Part shown: positions 3,741 through 29,497 of the stretch, in pieces | Layout of the letters: each line of letters starts with the position of its first letter | Numbering within the stretch: the first letter of the stretch is position 1 | IMG/VR virus record: IMGVR_UViG_644736359_000006 | Strand: one strand, 5' to 3' | Source: a virus | Lineage: Duplodnaviria; Heunggongvirae; Uroviricota; Caudoviricetes | DNA: 31,135 nt | Position numbers and translations under genes: made by a program | Notes under the pieces: generated by a model | Told to the model about the DNA's origin: nothing | Databases searched by the model: none | What the model saw: the letters and a program-made list of their open reading frames with translations, nothing else

Positions 3741-4445
3741 TTATCTAATATCGCTTCGGGAAGTTAATAACAACTTTAATTCTGACTCAAGTTCATCAAC
3801 TCTTTCAGTCAGTTTCTGGATATGGTGAATCAGTGGAACAACCAGACGTTCGTACATTACACCTTCGGCAACAAGGCCATTGCTGGAAATAGCTTCAGGA
3901 GCATCATCTTCGTTAGCTGGTCGCCAGTGTACAAACTGAGGAGCAATTTCTCCTACTTCCTCGGCAATCAATCCGTAGAATCCCCAGTCACGCCTGTCAT
4001 TTTCGCATTGCGACCTGTACCACACAGGGCGCATCCTGAAAATGAGATCGGCGTGCTCTGAATCTATTGTCTCTACTGAATGTTTATAGCGGATAGACGA
4101 TGTTGACCGCAGCACAGACGAAATTGCAGGGTCAGGATTAAGATAAAGGTTTGCCGCCGCTGTAGTCGTGGCCAAATTCCATAAATAAAACGCTTCACGA
4201 CCTGTCAGTGGATAAAAATCTCCGCCATAACGACCACTTTCCAGATCGTTCACTTCCACTTTGTTTTTCAGCTTATTATCAACTTCAGTTTTTGTGTATC
4301 TGGAGCTGATATCCTGCTTTGCACTGGTCATCTCAGTCTGAAGCGTTGATACTTTTCTGCTAATTGATGAAATATCTTCCTTAGCTTTACTGACATCCCC
4401 CTTTAGCTTGGTGATATCTCCTGGAATTACTGTCGATGTAGCCAT
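3741..4445 (-). CDS. Tail-fibre-associated protein with C-terminal intramolecular-chaperone (peptidase S74-like) domain
   Basis: 234-aa ORF; N-terminal coiled-coil-like K/S/T-rich stretch; C-terminal motif SSIRYKHSVE...GLIAEEVGEIAPQFV...GVMYERLVVPLIHHIQKL resembles the endosialidase/tail-spike chaperone domain. Confidence 0.45.
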   Translation of the reverse strand: MATSTVIPGDITKLKGDVSKAKEDISSISRKVSTLQTEMTSAKQDISSRYTKTEVDNKLKNKVEVNDLESGRYGGDFYPLTGREAFYLWNLATTTAAANLYLNPDPAISSVLRSTSSIRYKHSVETIDSEHADLIFRMRPVWYRSQCENDRRDWGFYGLIAEEVGEIAPQFVHWRPANEDDAPEAISSNGLVAEGVMYERLVVPLIHHIQKLTERVDELESELKLLLTSRSDIR

Positions 4446-7844: not shown

Positions 7845-9148
7845 TCAGCTAATCATGATGCCTGCAGTGGCTTTCTTCATCACCACAACCAGCAAATCGC
7901 TGATACTTGCTGTGGGATACCAGCCATTTACCAGCCATGCCGATACAGAAAATTCCAGTGTCATTACACCACTGCCTGCAGGCATATCAATAACACCCGT
8001 ATATATCAGCGTATTATCCAGAGCCGTTCGGTTATAAATTTCAGCACCGTTTTTTCGTACTATCAGACGGCATGAGGAGTAGATATCAGTATGATCTTGC
8101 TCATGTTTAGCGCCACTGAATGCCACCGCCGGAATAACAATTTGCCGGTCAAACGGCTGATCGTCATAAACCCTGACGGTAATGGTCCCTGATGGCCACC
8201 GCTCCGGTGCACGGGAGTCCCGGGGGAAAGCTTTGCCCACTGTTTTAACGAGATCGCCTTCAATCTGGTTCGCGGACAGTTTTCCCAGAACCCGGCAGTT
8301 CTCGTTAATCGTGACGTTGTTGAGCGTCCCGGAGTTCGCATTCACGTTACCGCTAATATCGGCATTTTTCGCCGTCAGCCGCCCGTCCGGTGTCAGGGAA
8401 AATGCCGGAGGATTACCGCCGCTGGTAATGGTGGGAGCCGTCAGATATTTCAGGAACACTTCGTTCATGAATATCTGATCGCCCTGACCAACAAACATCG
8501 GCTTTGTGTTGCCATTCGCAGGATTAATCATCGCAATCCTGTCCGCCGCCAGCAGCACCTGACTCTGCATACCGTCAGGGGTATTCTCAATACCGGCACC
8601 AATACCCGCGATATAAAGGCGTCCGTCCTGCATCTGCTGCAGCTTCACAGCCCACATGCTGTTCAGGTTATTATTTGTATCAACCTGAACCTTCTGTATC
8701 TGCTGGATTGCCGCACTCTGGTCTTCCAGTTTCTTATTGACGGTCTGCGTGATTTCATTACTGACATCCGTGATGGACGTTCTGATTTCCGCCAGGTCAG
8801 GCGCAAGCTGACCGTTATCAATCTGCGTCCACAACTCCTGAGCCAGATGGGTTTTCCCTATCTCTCCTTTGAAAAAATTCAGATAGCCGGATGCATCATC
8901 ACTCGGCTGGCCAACAGCCTCCACGAATGCCGATTTGCCAACGGTGTTCACACTGCGGATGTAAAAATAATAATCATGGCCCGGTTTGATATTGATACTG
9001 GCGGCTATCCAGTACAGCGCCGTGCCAAGATAGCGTGCTGTGGTTTCAACCTGCCTGATATCCGCAATCCGCTTTTCCGAGAACCAGAACTCAAACTGTA
9101 CCGTCGGATCATAAACCGCAAGATGCGGCGTGGCGGTTATCTGAAAAT
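7845..9148 (-). pseudogene. Host-specificity protein J (tail tip), C-terminal ~434 codons only, 5' end removed by IS3
   Basis: Long ORF runs without a native start straight into the IS3 left end at 9149; position upstream of lom matches lambda J. Confidence 0.7.
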
Positions 9149-9204
9149 TGATCTTACCCAGCAATAGTGGACACGCGGCTAAGTGAGTAAACTCTCAGTC
9201 AGAG

Positions 9205-9513
9205 GTGACTCACATGACAAAAACAGTATCAACCAGTAAAAAACCCCGTAAACAGCATTCGCCTGAATTTCGCAGTGAAGCCCTGAAGCTTGCTGAACGC
9301 ATCGGTGTTACTGCCGCAGCCCGTGAACTCAGCCTGTATGAATCACAGCTCTACAACTGGCGCAGTAAACAGCAAAATCAGCAGACGTCTTCTGAACGTG
9401 AACTGGAGATGTCTACCGAGATTGCACGTCTCAAACGCCAGCTGGCAGAACGGGATGAAGAGCTGGCTATCCTCCAAAAGGCCGCGACATACTTCGCGAA
9501 GCGCCTGAAATGA
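9205..9513 (+). CDS. insE: IS3 OrfA (InsE), HTH transposase component
   Basis: ORF ...[31 protein letters not shown]... with C-terminal leucine-zipper-like region; first ATG at 9205, conventional start a few codons later. Confidence 0.85.
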
Positions 9514-10376
9514 AGTATGTCTTTATTGAAAAACATCAGGCTGAGTTCAGCATCAAAGCAATGTGCCGCGTGCTCCGGGTGGCCCGCAGCGGCTGGTATA
9601 CGTGGTGTCAGCGGCGGACAAGGATAAGCACGCGTCAGCAGTTCCGCCAACACTGCGACAGCGTTGTCCTCGCGGCTTTTACCCGGTCAAAACAGCGTTA
9701 CGGTGCCCCACGCCTGACGGATGAACTGCGTGCTCAGGGTTACCCCTTTAACGTAAAAACCGTGGCGGCAAGCCTGCGCCGTCAGGGACTGAGGGCAAAG
9801 GCCTCCCGGAAGTTCAGCCCGGTCAGCTACCGCGCACACGGCCTGCCTGTGTCAGAAAATCTGTTGGAGCAGGATTTTTACGCCAGTGGCCCGAACCAGA
9901 AGTGGGCAGGAGACATCACGTACTTACGTACAGATGAAGGCTGGCTGTATCTGGCAGTGGTCATTGACCTGTGGTCACGTGCCGTTATTGGCTGGTCAAT
10001 GTCGCCACGCATGACGGCGCAACTGGCCTGCGATGCCCTGCAGATGGCGCTGTGGCGGCGTAAGAGGCCCCGGAACGTTATCGTTCACACGGACCGTGGA
10101 GGCCAGTACTGTTCAGCAGATTATCAGGCGCAACTGAAGCGGCATAATCTGCGTGGAAGTATGAGCGCAAAAGGTTGCTGCTACGATAATGCCTGCGTGG
10201 AAAGCTTCTTTCATTCGCTGAAAGTGGAATGTATCCATGGAGAACACTTTATCAGCCGGGAAATAATGCGGGCAACGGTGTTTAATTATATCGAATGTGA
10301 TTACAATCGGTGGCGGCGGCACAGTTGGTGTGGCGGCCTCAGTCCGGAACAATTTGAAAACAAGAACCTCGCTTAG
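9510..10376 (+). CDS. insF: IS3 OrfB (InsF), DDE transposase catalytic domain, in -1 frame relative to orfA
   Basis: 288-aa ORF overlapping the orfA stop (ATGA) in the -1 frame; DDE-type core ...HTDRGGQY... Confidence 0.85.
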
Positions 10377-10529
10377 GCCTGTGTCCATATTACGTGGGTA
10401 GGATCAATTCACCTAAATACGAGGCATTGCTGTAGTTGAATTGCATTGCTGTATTAGCCTGACAGTGACAGAATACGATATTGACTCTGTCACTTGTGAA
10501 ATGGTCAGAATGGTTAGCAGTTATGGTGA

Positions 10530-15489: not shown

Positions 15490-16758
15490 CTGATATCATT
15501 GGGGTTACACCAGGTAAGTATAGGTGGAAAATCAATATTCGCCAGTTCAACAATAAGGAAAATCTCATTGCATCACAACTATAAAACCATGTGTTTAACT
15601 CACAAAAAACAAATCATTAAACTAATCTGTTATATTATAATAGCTGCGTGCAATAATAATATTATATGCTCTTAATATTCACTTGAAATATCTTCATATA
15701 AAAACAGATTGAATAAAATCTTTTGGGGCTGGTATGTTTACCAACATTAAATTGCATCTCAATGTTTTCTTTAGCGTGAACAGGATTTTTATAAAAACTG
15801 ACACTATGAGCATCATAGCGTAGTTTTTACGATTGTAAATATCCTGCATACAGGAACTCATCACTTTCAGATGATATCGCATACAGTTAATTCACCATCA
15901 GTCTTAGAGCCAGTTCTTCCGGATAGGGATCGAAGTAATTCTGTGTAAGCAAGTAATCATTAGGATACTCACCCAGATAATGCTTCAGCAGAGTCAACGG
16001 CGCAAGAAGAGGCAATGTGCCAAAGCGATAGTTAAGTATAACCTCGCTCAACTCTTTACGCTGGCGTGTGCTTAAGTAATTACTAAAATACCCCTGTATA
16101 TGCATCAGCACATTCGTGTGATTTTTACGTGATGCTGGTTTTCTGAGAATCGCCATCAGATTATCACGATACACCTCAAAGTATGATTCAAGGTCCGCCC
16201 ACTCGTGTATTGCAGCCACAAATGGTCCCATATCTTTATAGCCTGCCTGGCTATGCGCCAACAACTGAAGCTTATAACGACTATGAAAAGCTAATAACTC
16301 TCTTCTTGATAATTTCTCCTTGTAAAGGTGATTGAGCTCATCCAAAGCAAAAACTCTTTCAATAAAATTCTCACGAAGCACTGGATCATGTAATCGCCCA
16401 TCCTCTTCAACCGGTAGCCAGGAAAACTTTTCCATCAAAGTGCTCGTAAATAGTCCCACTCCATCTTTACGACCTCGATTACCATTTTCATCATAGACAC
16501 GCACGCGCTCCATGCCACAGCTGGGAGATTTAGCACAAACCACAAACCCCGATACATCCTTTAATTTGTCCATATAAGAACGACTAAACTCTGTCATTCT
16601 CTCTGTCACATCCTCATTCTGGTCGTGGCTGAAACACATCCGTATATTTCCTTGCTTCGAGCGCACAAGTCGTAGAGCAGGACGCGGAACTGGCAGCCCT
16701 ATTGATCTTACCCAGCAATAGTGGACACGCGGCTAAGTGAGTAAACTCTCAGTCAGAG

Positions 16759-17067
16759 GTGACTCACATGACAAAAACAGTATCAACCAGTAAAAAACCC
16801 CGTAAACAGCATTCGCCTGAATTTCGCAGTGAAGCCCTGAAGCTTGCTGAACGCATCGGTGTTACTGCCGCAGCCCGTGAACTCAGCCTGTATGAATCAC
16901 AACTCTACAACTGGCGCAGTAAACAGCAAAATCAGCAGACGTCTTCTGAACGTGAACTGGAGATGTCTACCGAGATTGCACGTCTCAAACGCCAGCTGGC
17001 AGAACGGGATGAAGAGCTGGCTATCCTCCAAAAGGCCGCGACATACTTCGCGAAGCGCCTGAAATGA
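16759..17067 (+). CDS. insE: IS3 OrfA (InsE)
   Basis: Identical product to copy 1 orfA. Confidence 0.85.
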
Positions 17068-17930
17068 AGTATGTCTTTATTGAAAAACATCAGGCTGAGT
17101 TCAGCATCAAAGCAATGTGCCGCGTGCTCCGGGTGGCCCGCAGCGGCTGGTATACGTGGTGTCAGCGGCGGACAAGGATAAGCACGCGTCAGCAGTTCCG
17201 CCAACACTGCGACAGCGTTGTCCTCGCGGCTTTTACCCGGTCAAAACAGCGTTACGGTGCCCCACGCCTGACGGATGAACTGCGTGCTCAGGGTTACCCC
17301 TTTAACGTAAAAACCGTGGCGGCAAGCCTGCGCCGTCAGGGACTGAGGGCAAAGGCCTCCCGGAAGTTCAGCCCGGTCAGCTACCGCGCACACGGCCTGC
17401 CTGTGTCAGAAAATCTGTTGGAGCAGGATTTTTACGCCAGTGGCCCGAACCAGAAGTGGGCAGGAGACATCACGTACTTACGTACAGATGAAGGCTGGCT
17501 GTATCTGGCAGTGGTCATTGACCTGTGGTCACGTGCCGTTATTGGCTGGTCAATGTCGCCACGCATGACGGCGCAACTGGCCTGCGATGCCCTGCAGATG
17601 GCGCTGTGGCGGCGTAAGAGGCCCCGGAACGTTATCGTTCACACGGACCGTGGAGGCCAGTACTGTTCAGCAGATTATCAGGCGCAACTGAAGCGGCATA
17701 ATCTGCGTGGAAGTATGAGCGCAAAAGGTTGCTGCTACGATAATGCCTGCGTGGAAAGCTTCTTTCATTCGCTGAAAGTGGAATGTATCCATGGAGAACA
17801 CTTTATCAGCCGGGAAATAATGCGGGCAACGGTGTTTAATTATATCGAATGTGATTACAATCGGTGGCGGCGGCACAGTTGGTGTGGCGGCCTCAGTCCG
17901 GAACAATTTGAAAACCAGAACCTCGCTTAG
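17064..17930 (+). CDS. insF: IS3 OrfB (InsF)
   Basis: As copy 1 but ...EQFENQNLA instead of ...EQFENKNLA. Confidence 0.85.
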
Positions 17931-18299
17931 GCCTGTGTCCATATTACGTGGGTAGGATCATATAGCCATTTCCGGACATACTGGTCTGAATGTTACCCAT
18001 TCCACTAATTTGTCCATTAAAAAGTCATCTCTTTTGTGACCACCATCAAAACGAACAGCAGAACCGCCCAAACAACCGCTGATCCCAATCACAGGTTTTT
18101 TTATCATTTCCTCCCCCTTGACTAATTCATTAACACATAAACTTTGTAGTGCACGGACTAAATTGCCTTTCTGGCTTCATCACTGACAATTTTTCTGTTA
18201 TTGACTATTCCTAATATAGTAGGAAAGTTCTTTAAGTGATCGGTCGTACTCATCTATCTTTCATACTTACTCTCAACTATCAAAAGTACAGGATTTATT

Positions 18300-24039: not shown

Positions 24040-24487
24040 TTGCTTTTTCTATAAGTTCGTCAGTTTCACGATCTACAACGGCAGGATCTGCAAAAAGCAG
24101 TCCGGATTCCACCACATCGCCATATTCTTTATTTAACCCGGCGATCATGTACGTAATACTTTTTCCATCACTGATCTCACGATACAACCTGAAATCACTA
24201 ATCCGGATAGCCTCCATAATTGCAGGCACTAGCGCTGTGAACTTTTCACGCTTATCCCTGGTGTCGATAGCCTTCCAGCGTTCGAATATCTTCACTCGAT
24301 TAACGCTAAGCGCTCGCTGATCAACCGCGCCACCTTCATATGTGACACGCTGAACATCGATGTTCGGGCGCTCTTTCAAAGCCCAGAATGCTTCAGTGAT
24401 TAATATCGTCGCCTGCTCCTGTGTCATTCCTGGTCGACATATCCAGGCATCCAGAGCCTCACGAGCCTGTTCAGGAGTGATTTTCAT
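23966..24487 (-). CDS. Hypothetical protein at the cII position
   Basis: 173-aa ORF overlapping both neighbours (operon coupling); possibly YdaT-like, not verified. Confidence 0.4.
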   Translation of the reverse strand: MKITPEQAREALDAWICRPGMTQEQATILITEAFWALKERPNIDVQRVTYEGGAVDQRALSVNRVKIFERWKAIDTRDKREKFTALVPAIMEAIRISDFRLYREISDGKSITYMIAGLNKEYGDVVESGLLFADPAVVDRETDELIEKAIAFKLAYRQQYQQKAGWNYESSFC

Positions 24488-24701
24488 TGTTCAACCGCCC
24501 CGCCCGCTTCGTCTTACGATATTCGTCATAAACTTTGGGATCATACTGAAGCTCCCCGCCAGATGCCTCCTGTAGACGCATCGCGCGACCTTCAGGAACC
24601 AGTATCCCCCAAGCAGCAACACTTGCCAGTCTCACTCCTGCGGCATTGGCAAGCTTTGTTTTGCTGCCAAAAAAAGTAATTGCGTCAACTTTAAGCATCA
24701 A
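24471..24701 (-). CDS. dicC: DicC-like (Cro-like) regulator
   Basis: 76-aa ORF MMLKVDAITFFGSKTKLANAAGVRLASVAAWG... with HTH; divergent from dicA across a 77-bp operator region. Confidence 0.65.
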   Translation of the reverse strand: MMLKVDAITFFGSKTKLANAAGVRLASVAAWGILVPEGRAMRLQEASGGELQYDPKVYDEYRKTKRAGRLNNENHS

Positions 24702-24778: not shown

Positions 24779-25186
24779 ATGGATACAAGAACCCTAGGCC
24801 AGCGAGTTCTGGCGCGACGAAAAGAATTACGCTTAACACAACGAGAAGCTGCGCGCCTCGCTGGAGTTGCTCACGTCACAATTTCACAATGGGAAAGAGA
24901 CGAAACCCAGCCAGTCGGAAAACGATTGTTTGCTTTAGCGGATGCTCTGAAGTGCTCACCTACATGGCTAATGTTTGGTGACGAAGACAAGGCACCAGTG
25001 CCTGCACAAGAACTTCATGTGGAAACAGAGCTAACTCCCAACCACAAAGAATTGATCGAATTATTCGATGCTCTTCCATCTTCCGAGCAGGAAGCCTTGC
25101 TGTCTGAAATGCGCGCAAGAGTAGAAAACTTCAACAAACTCTTCGAAGAAATGCTTAAAGCGCGTAAAAATAAATCAATAAAATAA
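24779..25186 (+). CDS. dicA: DicA-family XRE HTH repressor
   Basis: 135-aa ORF with motifs ...LTQREAARLAGVAHVTISQWERDETQP...SPTWLMFGDEDK...MRARVENFNKLFEEMLKARK. Confidence 0.85.
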   Translation: MDTRTLGQRVLARRKELRLTQREAARLAGVAHVTISQWERDETQPVGKRLFALADALKCSPTWLMFGDEDKAPVPAQELHVETELTPNHKELIELFDALPSSEQEALLSEMRARVENFNKLFEEMLKARKNKSIK

Positions 25187-25354: not shown

Positions 25355-25507
25355 ATGGATACTATCGATCTTGGCAACAGCGAATCTCTGGTATGTGGCG
25401 TGTTCCCCAACCAGGACGGTACGTTCACCGCGATGACATATACCAAAAGCAAAACGTTTAAAACCGAATCTGGCGCGCGTTGCTGGTTAGCCAGAAACAC
25501 TGACTGA
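25355..25507 (+). CDS. ydfA: YdfA-like small protein
   Basis: 50-aa product MDTIDLGNSESLVCGVFPNQDGTFTAMTYTKSKTFKTESGARCWLARNTD; GAGG RBS. Confidence 0.6.
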   Translation: MDTIDLGNSESLVCGVFPNQDGTFTAMTYTKSKTFKTESGARCWLARNTD

Positions 25508-25884
25508 TGAGGCTGACGATGGAATTTAAAGATTTACCGTCTGATGTACAGAAAACAGCAGCTCATACATTGCATTCTGTGCTGCGAGAAATCGGGAAAG
25601 ATATTGCAAGCGAGCCAGCAAAAGATCTGGCCCGGAAAATCAAGACCGCTTTCGTTGAGCTTTATAATGTTGGCACTGACTCTGAAACTGTCGAGACCAA
25701 GACCGTAAGTTCACCAATATTCTCACTTGAGCCAGGCGTATTATCAGGTGAAATATGCACCGAGATTTCCAGCGAACTGCTTCCGGTAATACGAGAAGCA
25801 ATTTGCCGTCGCGGTTTGGATGGAAGTTACGATCATGACGTCCTGCAAGTTCTCAGGACAATGGTGACTTCACTGGGGATTTGA
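25507..25884 (+). CDS. YdfB/YdfC-like protein (single 125-aa ORF)
   Basis: Start overlaps the ydfA stop (TGATG); family assignment from position only. Confidence 0.5.
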   Translation: MRLTMEFKDLPSDVQKTAAHTLHSVLREIGKDIASEPAKDLARKIKTAFVELYNVGTDSETVETKTVSSPIFSLEPGVLSGEICTEISSELLPVIREAICRRGLDGSYDHDVLQVLRTMVTSLGI

Positions 25885-26053
25885 TCCCTGCGTCCTCTAA
25901 CCTTTTGATATAGCGGTCCTCCAAGAAGCGGTAAATTTTGTCGAAATCATCTTTCCCCTCTGGTTTATTCAGAGGATTACAGGACCCGTAAGTAGCGGCA
26001 TACATTTCAACCGTTTTATCAAAAATATAAGAGACAAATTCTTCTTTAGTCAT
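25853..26053 (-). CDS. Candidate antisense small protein inside the dicB operon
   Basis: 66-aa ORF MTKEEFVSYIFDKTVEMYAATYGSC... with AAGGAA RBS 6-7 nt upstream of ATG; convergent overlap with the 125-aa gene. Confidence 0.35.
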   Translation of the reverse strand: MTKEEFVSYIFDKTVEMYAATYGSCNPLNKPEGKDDFDKIYRFLEDRYIKRLEDAGIKSPVKSPLS

Positions 26054-26327
26054 ATAGATTTCCTTCTTGGTTATTCGGGATAAGAAGGATACCACCTCGC
26101 CTGACGTGGTTAAAAGCAGGCACACAACACGAAAGCGCACGGCGAAGTTCGTCTCACTGTACGGTGTCGTTAAATTTAATTCGACCGTGCGCTTCCGGTT
26201 GTGGCAACCCGCGAAATGGCGCGGCGGTAAGTATGGCGGGGTTATTCCTTCCCCGTTGAGGACACCGAGTTGTCAGGTTGACCATACGCTTAAGTGACAA
26301 CCCCGCTGCAACGCCCTCTGTTATCAA

Positions 26328-26380
26328 TTTTCTGGTGACGTTTGGCGGTATCAGTTTTACTCCGTGACTGCTCTGCCGCC
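26328..26380 (+). ncRNA. dicF: DicF small RNA
   Basis: Sequence tttctggtgacgtttggcggtatcagttttactccgtgactgctctgccgcc followed by gttttt matches the 53-nt DicF with its 3' terminator hairpin. Confidence 0.85.
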
Positions 26381-26555
26381 GTTTTTAAAGTGAATTTTGT
26401 GATGCGGTGAATGCGGCTAAGCGCACGCGGAACAGTTAAAACCAAAAACAGTGTTATGGGTGGATTCTCTGTATCCGGCGTTAATTGTTAACTGGTTAAC
26501 GTCACCTGGAGGCACCAGGCACTGCATCACAAAATTCATTGTTGAGGACGCGATA

Positions 26556-26744
26556 ATGAAAACGTTATTACCAAACGTTAATACGTCTGAAGGTTGTTTT
26601 GAAATTGGTGTCACTATCAGTAACCCTGTATTTACTGAAGATGCCATTAACAAGAGAAAACAAGAACGGGAGCTATTAAATAAAATATGCATTGTTTCAA
26701 TGCTGGCTCGTTTACGTCTGATGCCAAAAGGATGTACACAATGA
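26556..26744 (+). CDS. dicB: Cell division inhibitor DicB
   Basis: 62-aa product MKTLLPNVNTSEGCFEIGVTISNPVFTEDAINKRKQERELLNKICIVSMLARLRLMPKGCTQ; GAGGA RBS. Confidence 0.85.
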   Translation: MKTLLPNVNTSEGCFEIGVTISNPVFTEDAINKRKQERELLNKICIVSMLARLRLMPKGCTQ

Positions 26745-27025: not shown

Positions 27026-29497
27026 ATGAGTAAAGTCTTTATTTGCGCCGCTATTCCTGACGAACTGGCAACAAGGGAAGAAGGCGCTGTGGCTGTAGCC
27101 ACAGCCATTGAAGCTGGCGACGAACGCCGTGCTCGAGCAAAATTTCACTGGCAGTTCCTGGAACATTATCCGGCTGCTCAGGACTGCGCTTATAAATTTA
27201 TTGTCTGCGAGGATAAACCTGGCATACCCCGCCCTGCCCTCGATTCATGGGATGCTGAATATATGCAGGAAAACCGCTGGGATGAGGAGTCTGCTTCTTT
27301 TGTCCCGGTTGAGACTGAATCCGATCCGATGAACGTCACTTTTGACAAGCTGGCCCCTGAAGTACAGAACGCTGTCATGGTTAAGTTCGACACATGTGAA
27401 AACATCACCGTTGATATGGTTATTAGCGCACAGGAATTGTTGCAGGAAGACATGGCAACATTCGACGGACATATCGTTGAAGCGTTGATGAAAATGCCAG
27501 AAGTTAACGCCATGTATCCGGAGCTTAAGTTGCACGCCATTGGGTGGGTTAAGCATAAATGTATTCCTGGTGCTAAATGGCCCGAAATTCAGGCAGAGAT
27601 GCGCATCTGGAAAAAACGTCGCGAAGGTGAACGCAAGGAAACCGGAAAATACACGTCTGTTGTTGATCTCGCCCGCGCCAGAGCCAATCAACAGTACACT
27701 GAAAATTCAACAGGAAAAATCAGCCCGGTCATTGCTGCCATTCATCGCGAATACAAGCAGACATGGAAAACACTGGATGACGAACTGGCCTACGCTCTCT
27801 GGCCTGGTGATGTGGATGCCGGAAACATTGACGGCAGCATCCATCGCTGGGCAAAAAAAGAAGTTATCGACAACGACCGCGAAGACTGGAAGCGTATCTC
27901 GGCATCAATGCGCAAACAGCCTGATGCCCTTCGCTACGACCGCCAAACTATTTTTGGCCTTGTCCGTGAGCGTCCGATCGACATTCACAAAGATCCCGTA
28001 GCACTGAACAAATATATCTGCGAATACCTGACGACAAAGGGCGTGTTTGAGAATGAAGAAACAGACCTGGGCACTGTTGATGTTCTCCAGTCATCAGAAA
28101 CACAAACTGATGCAGTGGAAACTGAGGTATCTGATATCCCAAAAAATGAAACCGCGCCGGAAGCTGAACCATCTGTAGAGCGTGAGGGGCCGTTCTATTT
28201 CCTCTTCGCAGATAAGGACGGAGAAAAATACGGTCGCGCAAACAAACTTTCTGGTCTGGATAAGGCACTGGCTGCTGGCGCCACTGAAATCACAAAAGAA
28301 GAATATTTTGCCCGAAAAAATGGCACATACACGGGCTTACCGCAAAATGTAGATACCGCTGAAGATTCAGAACAACCAGAGCCGATAAAAGTTACCGCTG
28401 ACGAAGTAAACAAAATTATGCAGGCAGCCAATATCAGCCAGCCTGACGCCGATAAGTTGCTTGCTGCATCACATGGTGAATTTGTTGAAGGGATTAGTGA
28501 CCCGAATGATCCGAAATGGGTTAAGGGGATCCAGACCCGCGATTCTGTGAACCAGAACCAGCATGAATCGGAACGGAACTACCAAAAAGCGGAACAAAAC
28601 AGCCCAAATGCGTTACAAAACGAGCCAGAAACGAAACAGCCTGAACCAGTGGCGCAACAGGAAGTGGAAAAAGTCTGCACCGCCTGCGGTCAGACCGGCG
28701 GCGGCAACTGCCCTGATTGTGGCGCGGTGATGGGCGACGCAACATACCAAAAAACATTCGATGAAGAGTATCAGGTTGAAGTTCAGGAAGATGATCCGGA
28801 GGAAATGGAAGGCGCTGAACATCCACACAAGGAGAACACTGGCGGCAATCAGCATCACAATAGCGATAATGAAACTGGCGAGACGGCAGATCACTCAATT
28901 AAGGTGAACAGTCATCACGAAATCACATCCACCAGCAGGACGTGTGACCATCTAATGATCGACCTTGAAACCATGGGAAAAAATCCTGATGCACCGATCA
29001 TCTCAATAGGTGCAATATTTTTCGATCCGCAAACCGGAGATATAGGACCGGAATTTAGTAAGACTATCGATCTGGAAACTGCTGGCGGAGTCATTGATCG
29101 GGACACCATTAAATGGTGGCTTAAGCAATCACGCGAAGCACAATCTGCCATTATGACCGATGAAATCCCGCTAGATGATGCACTGTTACAATTGCGGGAA
29201 TTTATCGACGAAAACTCCGGTGAATTTTTTGTTCAGGTTTGGGGAAATGGAGCCAACTTCGACAACACGATTTTGCGCCGTTCATACGAACGGCAGGGGA
29301 TCCCCTGCCCGTGGCGTTACTACAACGATCGCGATGTACGCACAATCGTTGAGCTGGGGAAAGCCATAGATTTCGATGCCAGAACGGCTATTCCATTCGA
29401 AGGTGAGCGCCATAATGCACTTGATGACGCCCGTTACCAAGCAAAATACGTTTCAGTTATCTGGCAAAAACTGATCCCGAGTCAGGCTGATTCTTAA
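27026..29497 (+). CDS. ydfE: Full-length YdfE-type exonuclease: RecE-like N-terminal region, zinc ribbon, C-terminal DnaQ-like DEDDh 3'-5' exonuclease domain
   Basis: 823-aa ORF; ...ADKLLAASHGEFVEGISDPNDPKWVKGIQTRDSV... ; CTACGQ...CPDCG; C-terminal MIDLETMGKNPDAPIISIGAIFFD...HNALDDARYQAKY. Confidence 0.75.
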   Translation: MSKVFICAAIPDELATREEGAVAVATAIEAGDERRARAKFHWQFLEHYPAAQDCAYKFIVCEDKPGIPRPALDSWDAEYMQENRWDEESASFVPVETESDPMNVTFDKLAPEVQNAVMVKFDTCENITVDMVISAQELLQEDMATFDGHIVEALMKMPEVNAMYPELKLHAIGWVKHKCIPGAKWPEIQAEMRIWKKRREGERKETGKYTSVVDLARARANQQYTENSTGKISPVIAAIHREYKQTWKTLDDELAYALWPGDVDAGNIDGSIHRWAKKEVIDNDREDWKRISASMRKQPDALRYDRQTIFGLVRERPIDIHKDPVALNKYICEYLTTKGVFENEETDLGTVDVLQSSETQTDAVETEVSDIPKNETAPEAEPSVEREGPFYFLFADKDGEKYGRANKLSGLDKALAAGATEITKEEYFARKNGTYTGLPQNVDTAEDSEQPEPIKVTADEVNKIMQAANISQPDADKLLAASHGEFVEGISDPNDPKWVKGIQTRDSVNQNQHESERNYQKAEQNSPNALQNEPETKQPEPVAQQEVEKVCTACGQTGGGNCPDCGAVMGDATYQKTFDEEYQVEVQEDDPEEMEGAEHPHKENTGGNQHHNSDNETGETADHSIKVNSHHEITSTSRTCDHLMIDLETMGKNPDAPIISIGAIFFDPQTGDIGPEFSKTIDLETAGGVIDRDTIKWWLKQSREAQSAIMTDEIPLDDALLQLREFIDENSGEFFVQVWGNGANFDNTILRRSYERQGIPCPWRYYNDRDVRTIVELGKAIDFDARTAIPFEGERHNALDDARYQAKYVSVIWQKLIPSQADS

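Follow-up and report, generated by a model that had tools for sequence, protein, structure and literature searches.

The minus-strand reading frame that faces the early operon upstream of dicF in a Qin-like prophage is almost certainly a genuine, selected small protein gene rather than a chance ORF, and comparison of related loci suggests that it forms, with the C-terminal domain of the gene it runs into, what is probably a portable convergent cassette of lambdoid prophage early regions in the Enterobacteriaceae. We refer to the 66-amino acid gene as Y and to its 121-amino acid plus-strand partner as X; the window is the whole stretch of DNA analysed here, 31,135 nucleotides of the IMG/VR virus record IMGVR_UViG_644736359_000006, and its features are collected in Table 1. 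The existence of Y is already known, as a database entry for a hypothetical protein; its tail-to-tail arrangement with X seems not to have been described in the literature searched.

Table 1. Features of the Y locus and its surroundings (positions in the window).
Feature	Position	Strand	Details or basis
Cro-like gene	24471-24701	minus	
dicA-like repressor gene	24779-25186	plus-strand layout	
ydfA (DUF1391)	3' end at 25507	plus-strand layout	
X, 121-aa partner gene	25519-25884, alternative start 25507	plus	WP_001320327.1; phrog_33007, E=1.3e-82
X C-terminal domain	25741-25884	plus	alignments
Y, 66-aa gene	25853-26053	minus	ATG 26053-26051, TGA 25855-25853
X/Y 3'-3' overlap, 32 nt	25853-25884	both	ORF coordinates
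Y Shine-Dalgarno sequence, AAGGAA	26065-26060	minus	6 nt from the ATG
Possible hairpin in the Y 5' UTR	26061-26089	minus	UCCUUCUU (26089-26082) with Shine-Dalgarno arm AAGAAGGA (26068-26061); RNAalifold
Candidate Y extended -10, TGgTATCCT	26094-26086	minus	inferred
Candidate Y -35, TTAACC	26113-26108	minus	inferred; 4/6 matches, 16-nt spacer
Mosaic module (end of ydfA, X, Y, 58 nt upstream of Y)	25487-26111		BLASTN against K-12, NC_000913.3
Long stem upstream of dicF	26120-26205		fold energies; context, outside Y
dicF sRNA gene	26330-26381	plus	Rfam RF00039, 72.5 bits, E=3e-15
dicB	26556-26744	plus	Pfam DicB PF05358, E=3.3e-40

The window is a lambdoid prophage of the Qin/mEp460 type, and the 631 bases around Y are 100% identical to E. 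coli B, BL21(DE3) and many other strains. The dicF gene lies 277 nt from Y, and dicB is followed by ydfD and then by a full-length RecE-like exonuclease gene. When the window is compared with the Qin prophage of K-12 (BLASTN, NC_000913.3), similarity stops at position 25486 and is back at 26112 with 97% identity, and the module between these points takes the place of ydfB-ydfC of K-12 Qin. The RecE-like exonuclease VIII gene (27026-29497, plus strand) encodes 823 amino acids and is full length, like its counterpart in phage mEp460. The annotation of BL21(DE3) lists a truncated pseudogene instead, and the window hence does not come from BL21(DE3) itself. The prophage also carries two copies of an IS3-family element on the plus strand, at about 9148-10400 and about 16702-17960, in direct orientation and 7554 bp apart. 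Each consists of a 102-amino acid HTH_Tnp_1 ORF and a 288-amino acid rve ORF, and the two copies are identical over their initial 201 bp, after which they mismatch.

The initial annotation had described Y as a 66-codon minus-strand ORF with a well-placed AAGGAA ribosome-binding site that overlaps the 3' end of the plus-strand gene, and start, stop, site and overlap are all as it described them (Table 1). The size of the ORF alone is within chance, as the same 3 kb hold many spurious ORFs of 50-110 codons, and Y is taken as a real gene because of comparative evidence and not because of its length. Among seven diverged alleles, the pairs with an estimable dS gave dN/dS values of 0.06-0.33 (Nei-Gojobori), and in distant pairs the third codon positions hold an excess of the differences (e.g. 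12/14/28 and 21/13/33 over the three positions). The sole length change among the alleles is an in-frame indel of one codon in L002/L003. The comparison of synonymous and nonsynonymous changes across relatives, which had been suggested as a check, thus reveals clear purifying selection on Y, and most of the related loci retrieved carry an uninterrupted ORF, so that the reading of Y as an antisense-encoded small protein is now backed by comparative sequence evidence. Full-length relatives were found at 89, 88, 73, 57 and 54% identity. The N-terminus, MT[KN]EEFV.YIFDKTVE, is nearly invariant: codons 1-16 are 88% identical at the nucleotide level across the most distant alleles, with 14 of the 16 residues invariant. 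In the same alleles, the last 36 nt are 67-75% identical, as opposed to 54-67% for codons 17-55.

A purine-rich Shine-Dalgarno sequence is found at the same distance from the ATG in the relatives, namely AAAGGAA in L002, AGGGAGG in L004 and GGAGGA in L071, with flanks that differ; the site is hence retained in four unrelated upstream contexts. L002 and L004 have in-frame stop codons 15 and 24 nt before the ATG; the start is thereby fixed at this codon, and a 95-codon version of the ORF extended to a GTG (to 26140) is ruled out. Y is annotated as WP_000159335.1 (RefSeq) in BL21(DE3) and as VUF53565.1 in the inducible phage mEp460, in which the protein is 100% identical, and it matches phrog_34441, a phage family of unassigned function, over its entire length (E=1.5e-50, residues 1-66 against profile positions 1-66 of 66). 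PGAP and PHROGs each call the gene independently. Among 5426 complete E. coli genomes, 394 (about 7%) contain Y-specific DNA, which is at least 99% identical in 393 of them and nearly always labelled 'hypothetical protein'. The G+C content of Y is 40.8%, compared with 45-54% in the neighbouring genes.

The AlphaFold model of Y, built from six sequences, is a two-helix hairpin (H3-22 and H31-54) with a flexible tail (pLDDT 81.5), and the sequence has no hydrophobic segment; Y is thus predicted to be a soluble protein of two helices and a flexible tail. Searches of Pfam, NCBIfam and PADLOC gave no significant match. The Pfam family Zn_ribbon_16 was considered and rejected, as its E value of 0.04 was below threshold and Y does not have the cysteine pattern. 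Foldseek searches of the PDB and BFVD returned generic helical-hairpin matches only (E>0.8), and a profile search of the PDB found no match. An exhaustive HMMER search retrieved 13 clusters among 1.84 billion representatives, which are either relatives from enterobacterial prophages or repeat-protein noise. We found no usable report in the literature on WP_000159335 or on ybl80/81/82.

The partner X, named 'Ybl81' in UniRef, is also under purifying selection (dN/dS 0.15-0.38). Its AlphaFold model shows two helical hairpins and a disordered linker at low confidence (pLDDT 59), and its C-terminal domain of about 50 amino acids follows the pattern GE.LP...AI...G..G.Y......V...M..SLG. The initial annotation had placed Y between a ydfB/C-like gene and dicF. 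The position is correct and the label is not: BLASTP produced no alignment of X with YdfB or YdfC, which makes X a positional analogue only, and likewise none of Y with either protein. The idea that the X C-terminal domain and Y are paralogues was also discarded (hhalign probability 0.07%). An alignment search with the C-terminal domain in a database of 5.8 billion proteins returned no match, a type of search that is limited by the word index.

In every lineage with a complete Y gene, a gene on the opposite strand converges on Y and overlaps its 3' end. This convergent partner is present in the window and in L002/L003, L004/L005, L011, L065, L067 and L071. The two genes share 32 nt in the window, L011, L065 and L067; the overlap extends to 56 nt in L002/L003 and measures 35 nt in L071. 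In the Cedecea loci L004/L005, the partner frame runs through all of Y. What is conserved of the partner is the C-terminal domain only, and Y is always accompanied by this domain. X has a different N-terminal part in L002/L003 and none in Cedecea and L071; the Cedecea partner (L004) consists of the C-terminal domain alone, and the likeness of the L071 partner to the X domain is weak and was judged by eye. The X-domain ORF of Cedecea L004 (3568-3897, minus strand) has lost the usual stop and continues antisense through the whole of Y to give 109 amino acids, with an arginine-rich tail that looks like non-coding read-through.

A search for the X domain in IMG/VR identified 62 loci, and in 55 of these Y is full length and convergent. 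The others show a 365-bp deletion, an IS1 insertion or a 64-amino acid variant. The deletion (25904-26268; L091 and L094) removes Y codons 1-51, the region upstream and the putative RNase III stem, and leaves X, dicF and dicB intact. In L123, L124, L127 and L128, the sequence reads as an IS1 end at about Y codon 13. Where such natural deletions or insertions have destroyed Y, X stays, as do dicF and dicB where the sequence reaches them. The same IS1-truncated Y protein (P0006/P0007) is recorded from Shigella sonnei. In three further loci (L068, L069 and L070), only Y codons 1-15 to 1-22 and the upstream region remain, joined to unrelated sequence, which shows a recombination breakpoint inside Y. 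In most lineages, the cassette directly follows the immunity repressor gene and comes first or second in the leftward early operon; the Cedecea copy is located between cro and cII. At both sites, X lies on the strand of the early operon and Y on the opposite strand. Convergence and 3' overlap are kept at these two positions and across four divergent lineages of prophages.

A consensus promoter scan called no promoter for Y, with the best -10 candidate below threshold. The swapped module has only 58 nt upstream of Y, and a self-contained promoter would therefore lie within these 58 nt, where we regard the extended -10 element TGgTATCCT as a candidate. This candidate is the sole minus-strand match to TGNTANNNT between 25233 and 28740; the motif class as a whole occurs 70 times in the window (62 kb of strand), so that a match is weak evidence taken singly. 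GGTGGTATCCTT is invariant in the window, L002, L011 and L067, and reads TGaTACCCT in L004, and divergent lineages share the form TGnTAnCCT 35-45 nt before the ATG. The candidate -35 element extends across the mosaic boundary at 26111/26112, and conservation does not include L002. Instead of being part of a promoter, the conserved GGTATCCTT could be the anti-Shine-Dalgarno arm of a hairpin in the 5' UTR, for which RNAalifold predicts 11 pairs, three of them with changes on both sides; the fold of the single sequence (-9.8 kcal/mol, z -1.2) is not significant alone. A real hairpin would place the start of the Y transcript upstream of 26089, in a stretch with no sequence common to the lineages.

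No intrinsic terminator for Y is predicted on the minus strand within the following 1 kb or so, the nearest such site lying inside the dicA-like gene. A stem at the Y stop codon (GUCCUG...CAGGAC) was rejected as a terminator, as it has no U-tract and a z score of -1.25. The part of the text of a BL21(DE3) transcriptome paper that was available contains nothing on the Y locus, and we found nothing usable for Y in BL21 transcription start-site tables in the literature. An ArcA-modulated RNA, sRNA-17, has been described from an mEp460-type prophage of E. coli RS218 (PMC7719688); its sequence is absent from the window, and it is not the Y transcript.

Based on the arrangement of the two genes, we propose that Y has a weak sigma-70 promoter of its own, of the extended -10 type, which would give a transcript with a 5' UTR of about 26 nt. 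As this putative promoter belongs to Y itself, Y could be made while the DicA-like repressor keeps the early operon (ydfA-X-dicF-dicB) off. Upon derepression of the operon, head-on transcription would pass over the Y promoter and gene, with the result that Y would be silenced and X made. Conversely, transcription of Y would produce an RNA complementary to the 3' end of the X mRNA and would meet polymerases bound for dicF and dicB. The products of X and Y would thus be alternatives, and we speculate that the most likely target or partner of the Y protein is the C-terminal domain of X, for instance within a four-helix heterodimer. Effects on DicF and DicB would be a by-product of the site of the cassette in Qin-like or mEp460-like prophages. 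We consider the account as a whole, that is, a coding gene in a cassette with a switch run from its own promoter and incidental effects on DicF/DicB, to have an even chance of being correct, and its mechanistic part is tentative and somewhat unlikely in the form given here. A bolder version, in which X and Y constitute an undescribed two-gene switch of temperate phages that works by mutual exclusion through convergent transcription and binding, with Y restraining X in the lysogen and incidentally gating read-through, in Qin-like prophages, to the toxic DicF and DicB, seems rather improbable to us.

The strongest alternative, which is doubtful but deserves weight, is that Y is a self-contained accessory gene of the moron type that benefits the lysogen, for example through exclusion or an effect on host physiology, and that its link with X is a physical overlap and nothing else. 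Morons of lambdoid phages, following the concept of Juhala and Hendrix, include lambda lom and bor and HK97 gene 15, and a classical moron is a single gene with its own promoter and its own terminator. Y resembles them in being an extra gene between conserved early genes, present or absent among mosaic prophages and missing from the K-12 counterpart, reverse-oriented and lower in G+C than its neighbours; with a possible promoter of its own, it could be expressed independently of the surrounding operon. Its occurrence in only a fraction of E. coli genomes and its dispensability in some lineages, seen in the L091/L094 deletion and the IS1 insertions of L123/124/127/128, also fit. It differs in that the promoter is a candidate, no terminator was found and what moves is a pair of convergent genes. 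Even where the N-terminal part of X is replaced or missing, its C-terminal domain varies and is transferred together with Y, and the cassette has moved as a pair into a different operon. An overlap of 32 nt would suffice physically, yet a whole domain of 50 amino acids has been retained, which argues against a merely physical link. PADLOC also gave no defence-family match.

It is also conceivable, and in our view improbable, that Y or its transcription exists to tune DicF and DicB, either by transcriptional interference or by antisense pairing in the dicB operon. The geometry is in keeping with this, as Y lies on the opposite strand, with the operon promoter (which follows the dicA-like gene) on one side and dicF on the other, and a Y transcript would run antisense into X and ydfA for lack of a terminator after Y. 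Furthermore, dicF and dicB depend on read-through from an upstream promoter (bioRxiv 10.1101/2023.04.14.536235). The distribution of the genes argues against such a role. The X-Y cassette occurs in prophages without dicF and dicB (L002-L005, L011, L063-L067 and L071), including the Cedecea copy in the rightward cro-cII operon, and K-12 Qin, like most E. coli, has dicF and dicB and no Y cassette; among the 5426 E. coli genomes, 4317 have the shared dicF upstream sequence and 394 have Y. Y is thus not co-conserved with dicF/dicB and lies on the strand opposite to the ydfA-to-dicB polycistron. As cassette and dicF/dicB occur apart, regulation of DicF/DicB is probably not the conserved role of Y. 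In addition, the selection on Y acts at the level of the protein, and a role of transcription alone would need no such selection. The candidate promoter is weak, and the predicted Y transcript overlaps none of dicF, the putative RNase III stem and dicB. An effect of Y on DicF/DicB is possible at most as a local by-product, via polymerase collision.

The stem between Y and dicF (26120-26205) folds on the plus strand with -30 kcal/mol (z -3.1) and on the minus strand with -40 kcal/mol (z -5.2). An RNase III-dependent DicF species of 190 nt has been described (bioRxiv 10.1101/2023.04.14.536235), and the stem is likely the RNase III site that gives rise to this precursor, with a cut near 26192 by arithmetic. 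It is located outside the X-Y module and is absent from the predicted mRNA of Y. The arms of the stem, not its loop, are conserved beside the cassette in L011 and L067 (about 3850-3940), both of which lack dicF. The spacer between dicF and dicB (26379-26588, plus strand) has a sub-threshold match to Rfam STnc100 (RF02076; 34.5 bits against a gathering threshold of 47, E=5e-5) over the full model length. A promoter-like site between dicB and dicF on the minus strand (26491-26464; TTAACA, 16 nt, GAGAAT) lies inside the part common to the window and K-12, and would run antisense to DicF.

Two types of phage control element bear comparison with the proposed arrangement. The OOP RNA of phage lambda is non-coding and antisense to the 3' end of cII, and leads to RNase III-dependent decay. 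Similarly, the 3' part of a Y counter-transcript would be complementary to the 3' end of an early-operon gene beside the immunity region, and the Cedecea cassette sits exactly between cro and cII. Y differs from OOP in being a protein gene under selection at the amino acid level. Judged as a cis-antisense RNA of the type I toxin-antitoxin or OOP kind, Y has the expected overlap geometry of 32 nt, but it is protein-coding and the products are not hydrophobic. Interference between convergent promoters is part of the pR/pL switch of coliphage 186 and of the opposition of PR and PRE in lambda. In these switches, the promoters are close, the control over the repressor or the lytic choice is direct, and the interference has been measured. 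X and Y likewise are face-to-face units in the control region of a temperate phage, in which a strong lytic promoter could silence a weaker one. In contrast, their promoters would be about 800 bp apart, that of Y is putative, and neither product is a recognisable regulator.

That X and Y form a toxin-antitoxin-like or abortive-infection pair is very unlikely. They are two small, tightly linked genes on a mobile element that are retained together, and the Cedecea locus adjoins another toxin-antitoxin-like pair, TumE/HVO_A0114; however, X and Y are convergent and not co-transcribed, neither has a match to a toxin, antitoxin or defence family (Pfam, NCBIfam and PADLOC) or in the PDB, and neither is hydrophobic like type I toxins. 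Single losses, of Y in L091, L094 and L123 and of X in L068-L070, also occur without obvious counter-selection. The notion that Y is a non-functional chance ORF spread by annotation pipelines, for which one could cite its shortness, the many spurious ORFs of like length nearby and its lack of a Pfam or NCBIfam family with just 13 clusters in the exhaustive search, is effectively refuted by the dN/dS values, the in-frame indel, the conservation of the start codon and a Shine-Dalgarno site among alleles that are 54-73% identical and differ in context, and a helical model predicted with confidence from six sequences.

Apart from its pairing with X, Y is an ordinary uncharacterised phage accessory gene, and reverse-oriented accessory genes in lambdoid early regions are already known. 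Its setting is what lends it wider interest. Both the Qin-like prophage carried by E. coli B and BL21(DE3) and phage mEp460, which is inducible, have Y beside dicF and dicB, whose products inhibit cell division; BL21(DE3) is among the most widely used laboratory strains, and the control of DicF and DicB is still being worked out. In K-12 Qin, the ydfB-ydfC module belongs to the dicBF operon (PMC5069750). The X-Y cassette is found at the same location, flanked by ydfA and by the conserved sequence that precedes dicF, but has no sequence similarity to this module, and both K-12 genes lie on the operon strand, with no antisense gene there. For studies of dicBF regulation outside K-12, this means that ydfB-ydfC are not the equivalents of the X-Y cassette and that the 'untranslated' stretch upstream of dicF carries a selected gene in reverse orientation. 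X and Y also provide a small, tractable example of conserved convergent genes that overlap at their 3' ends.
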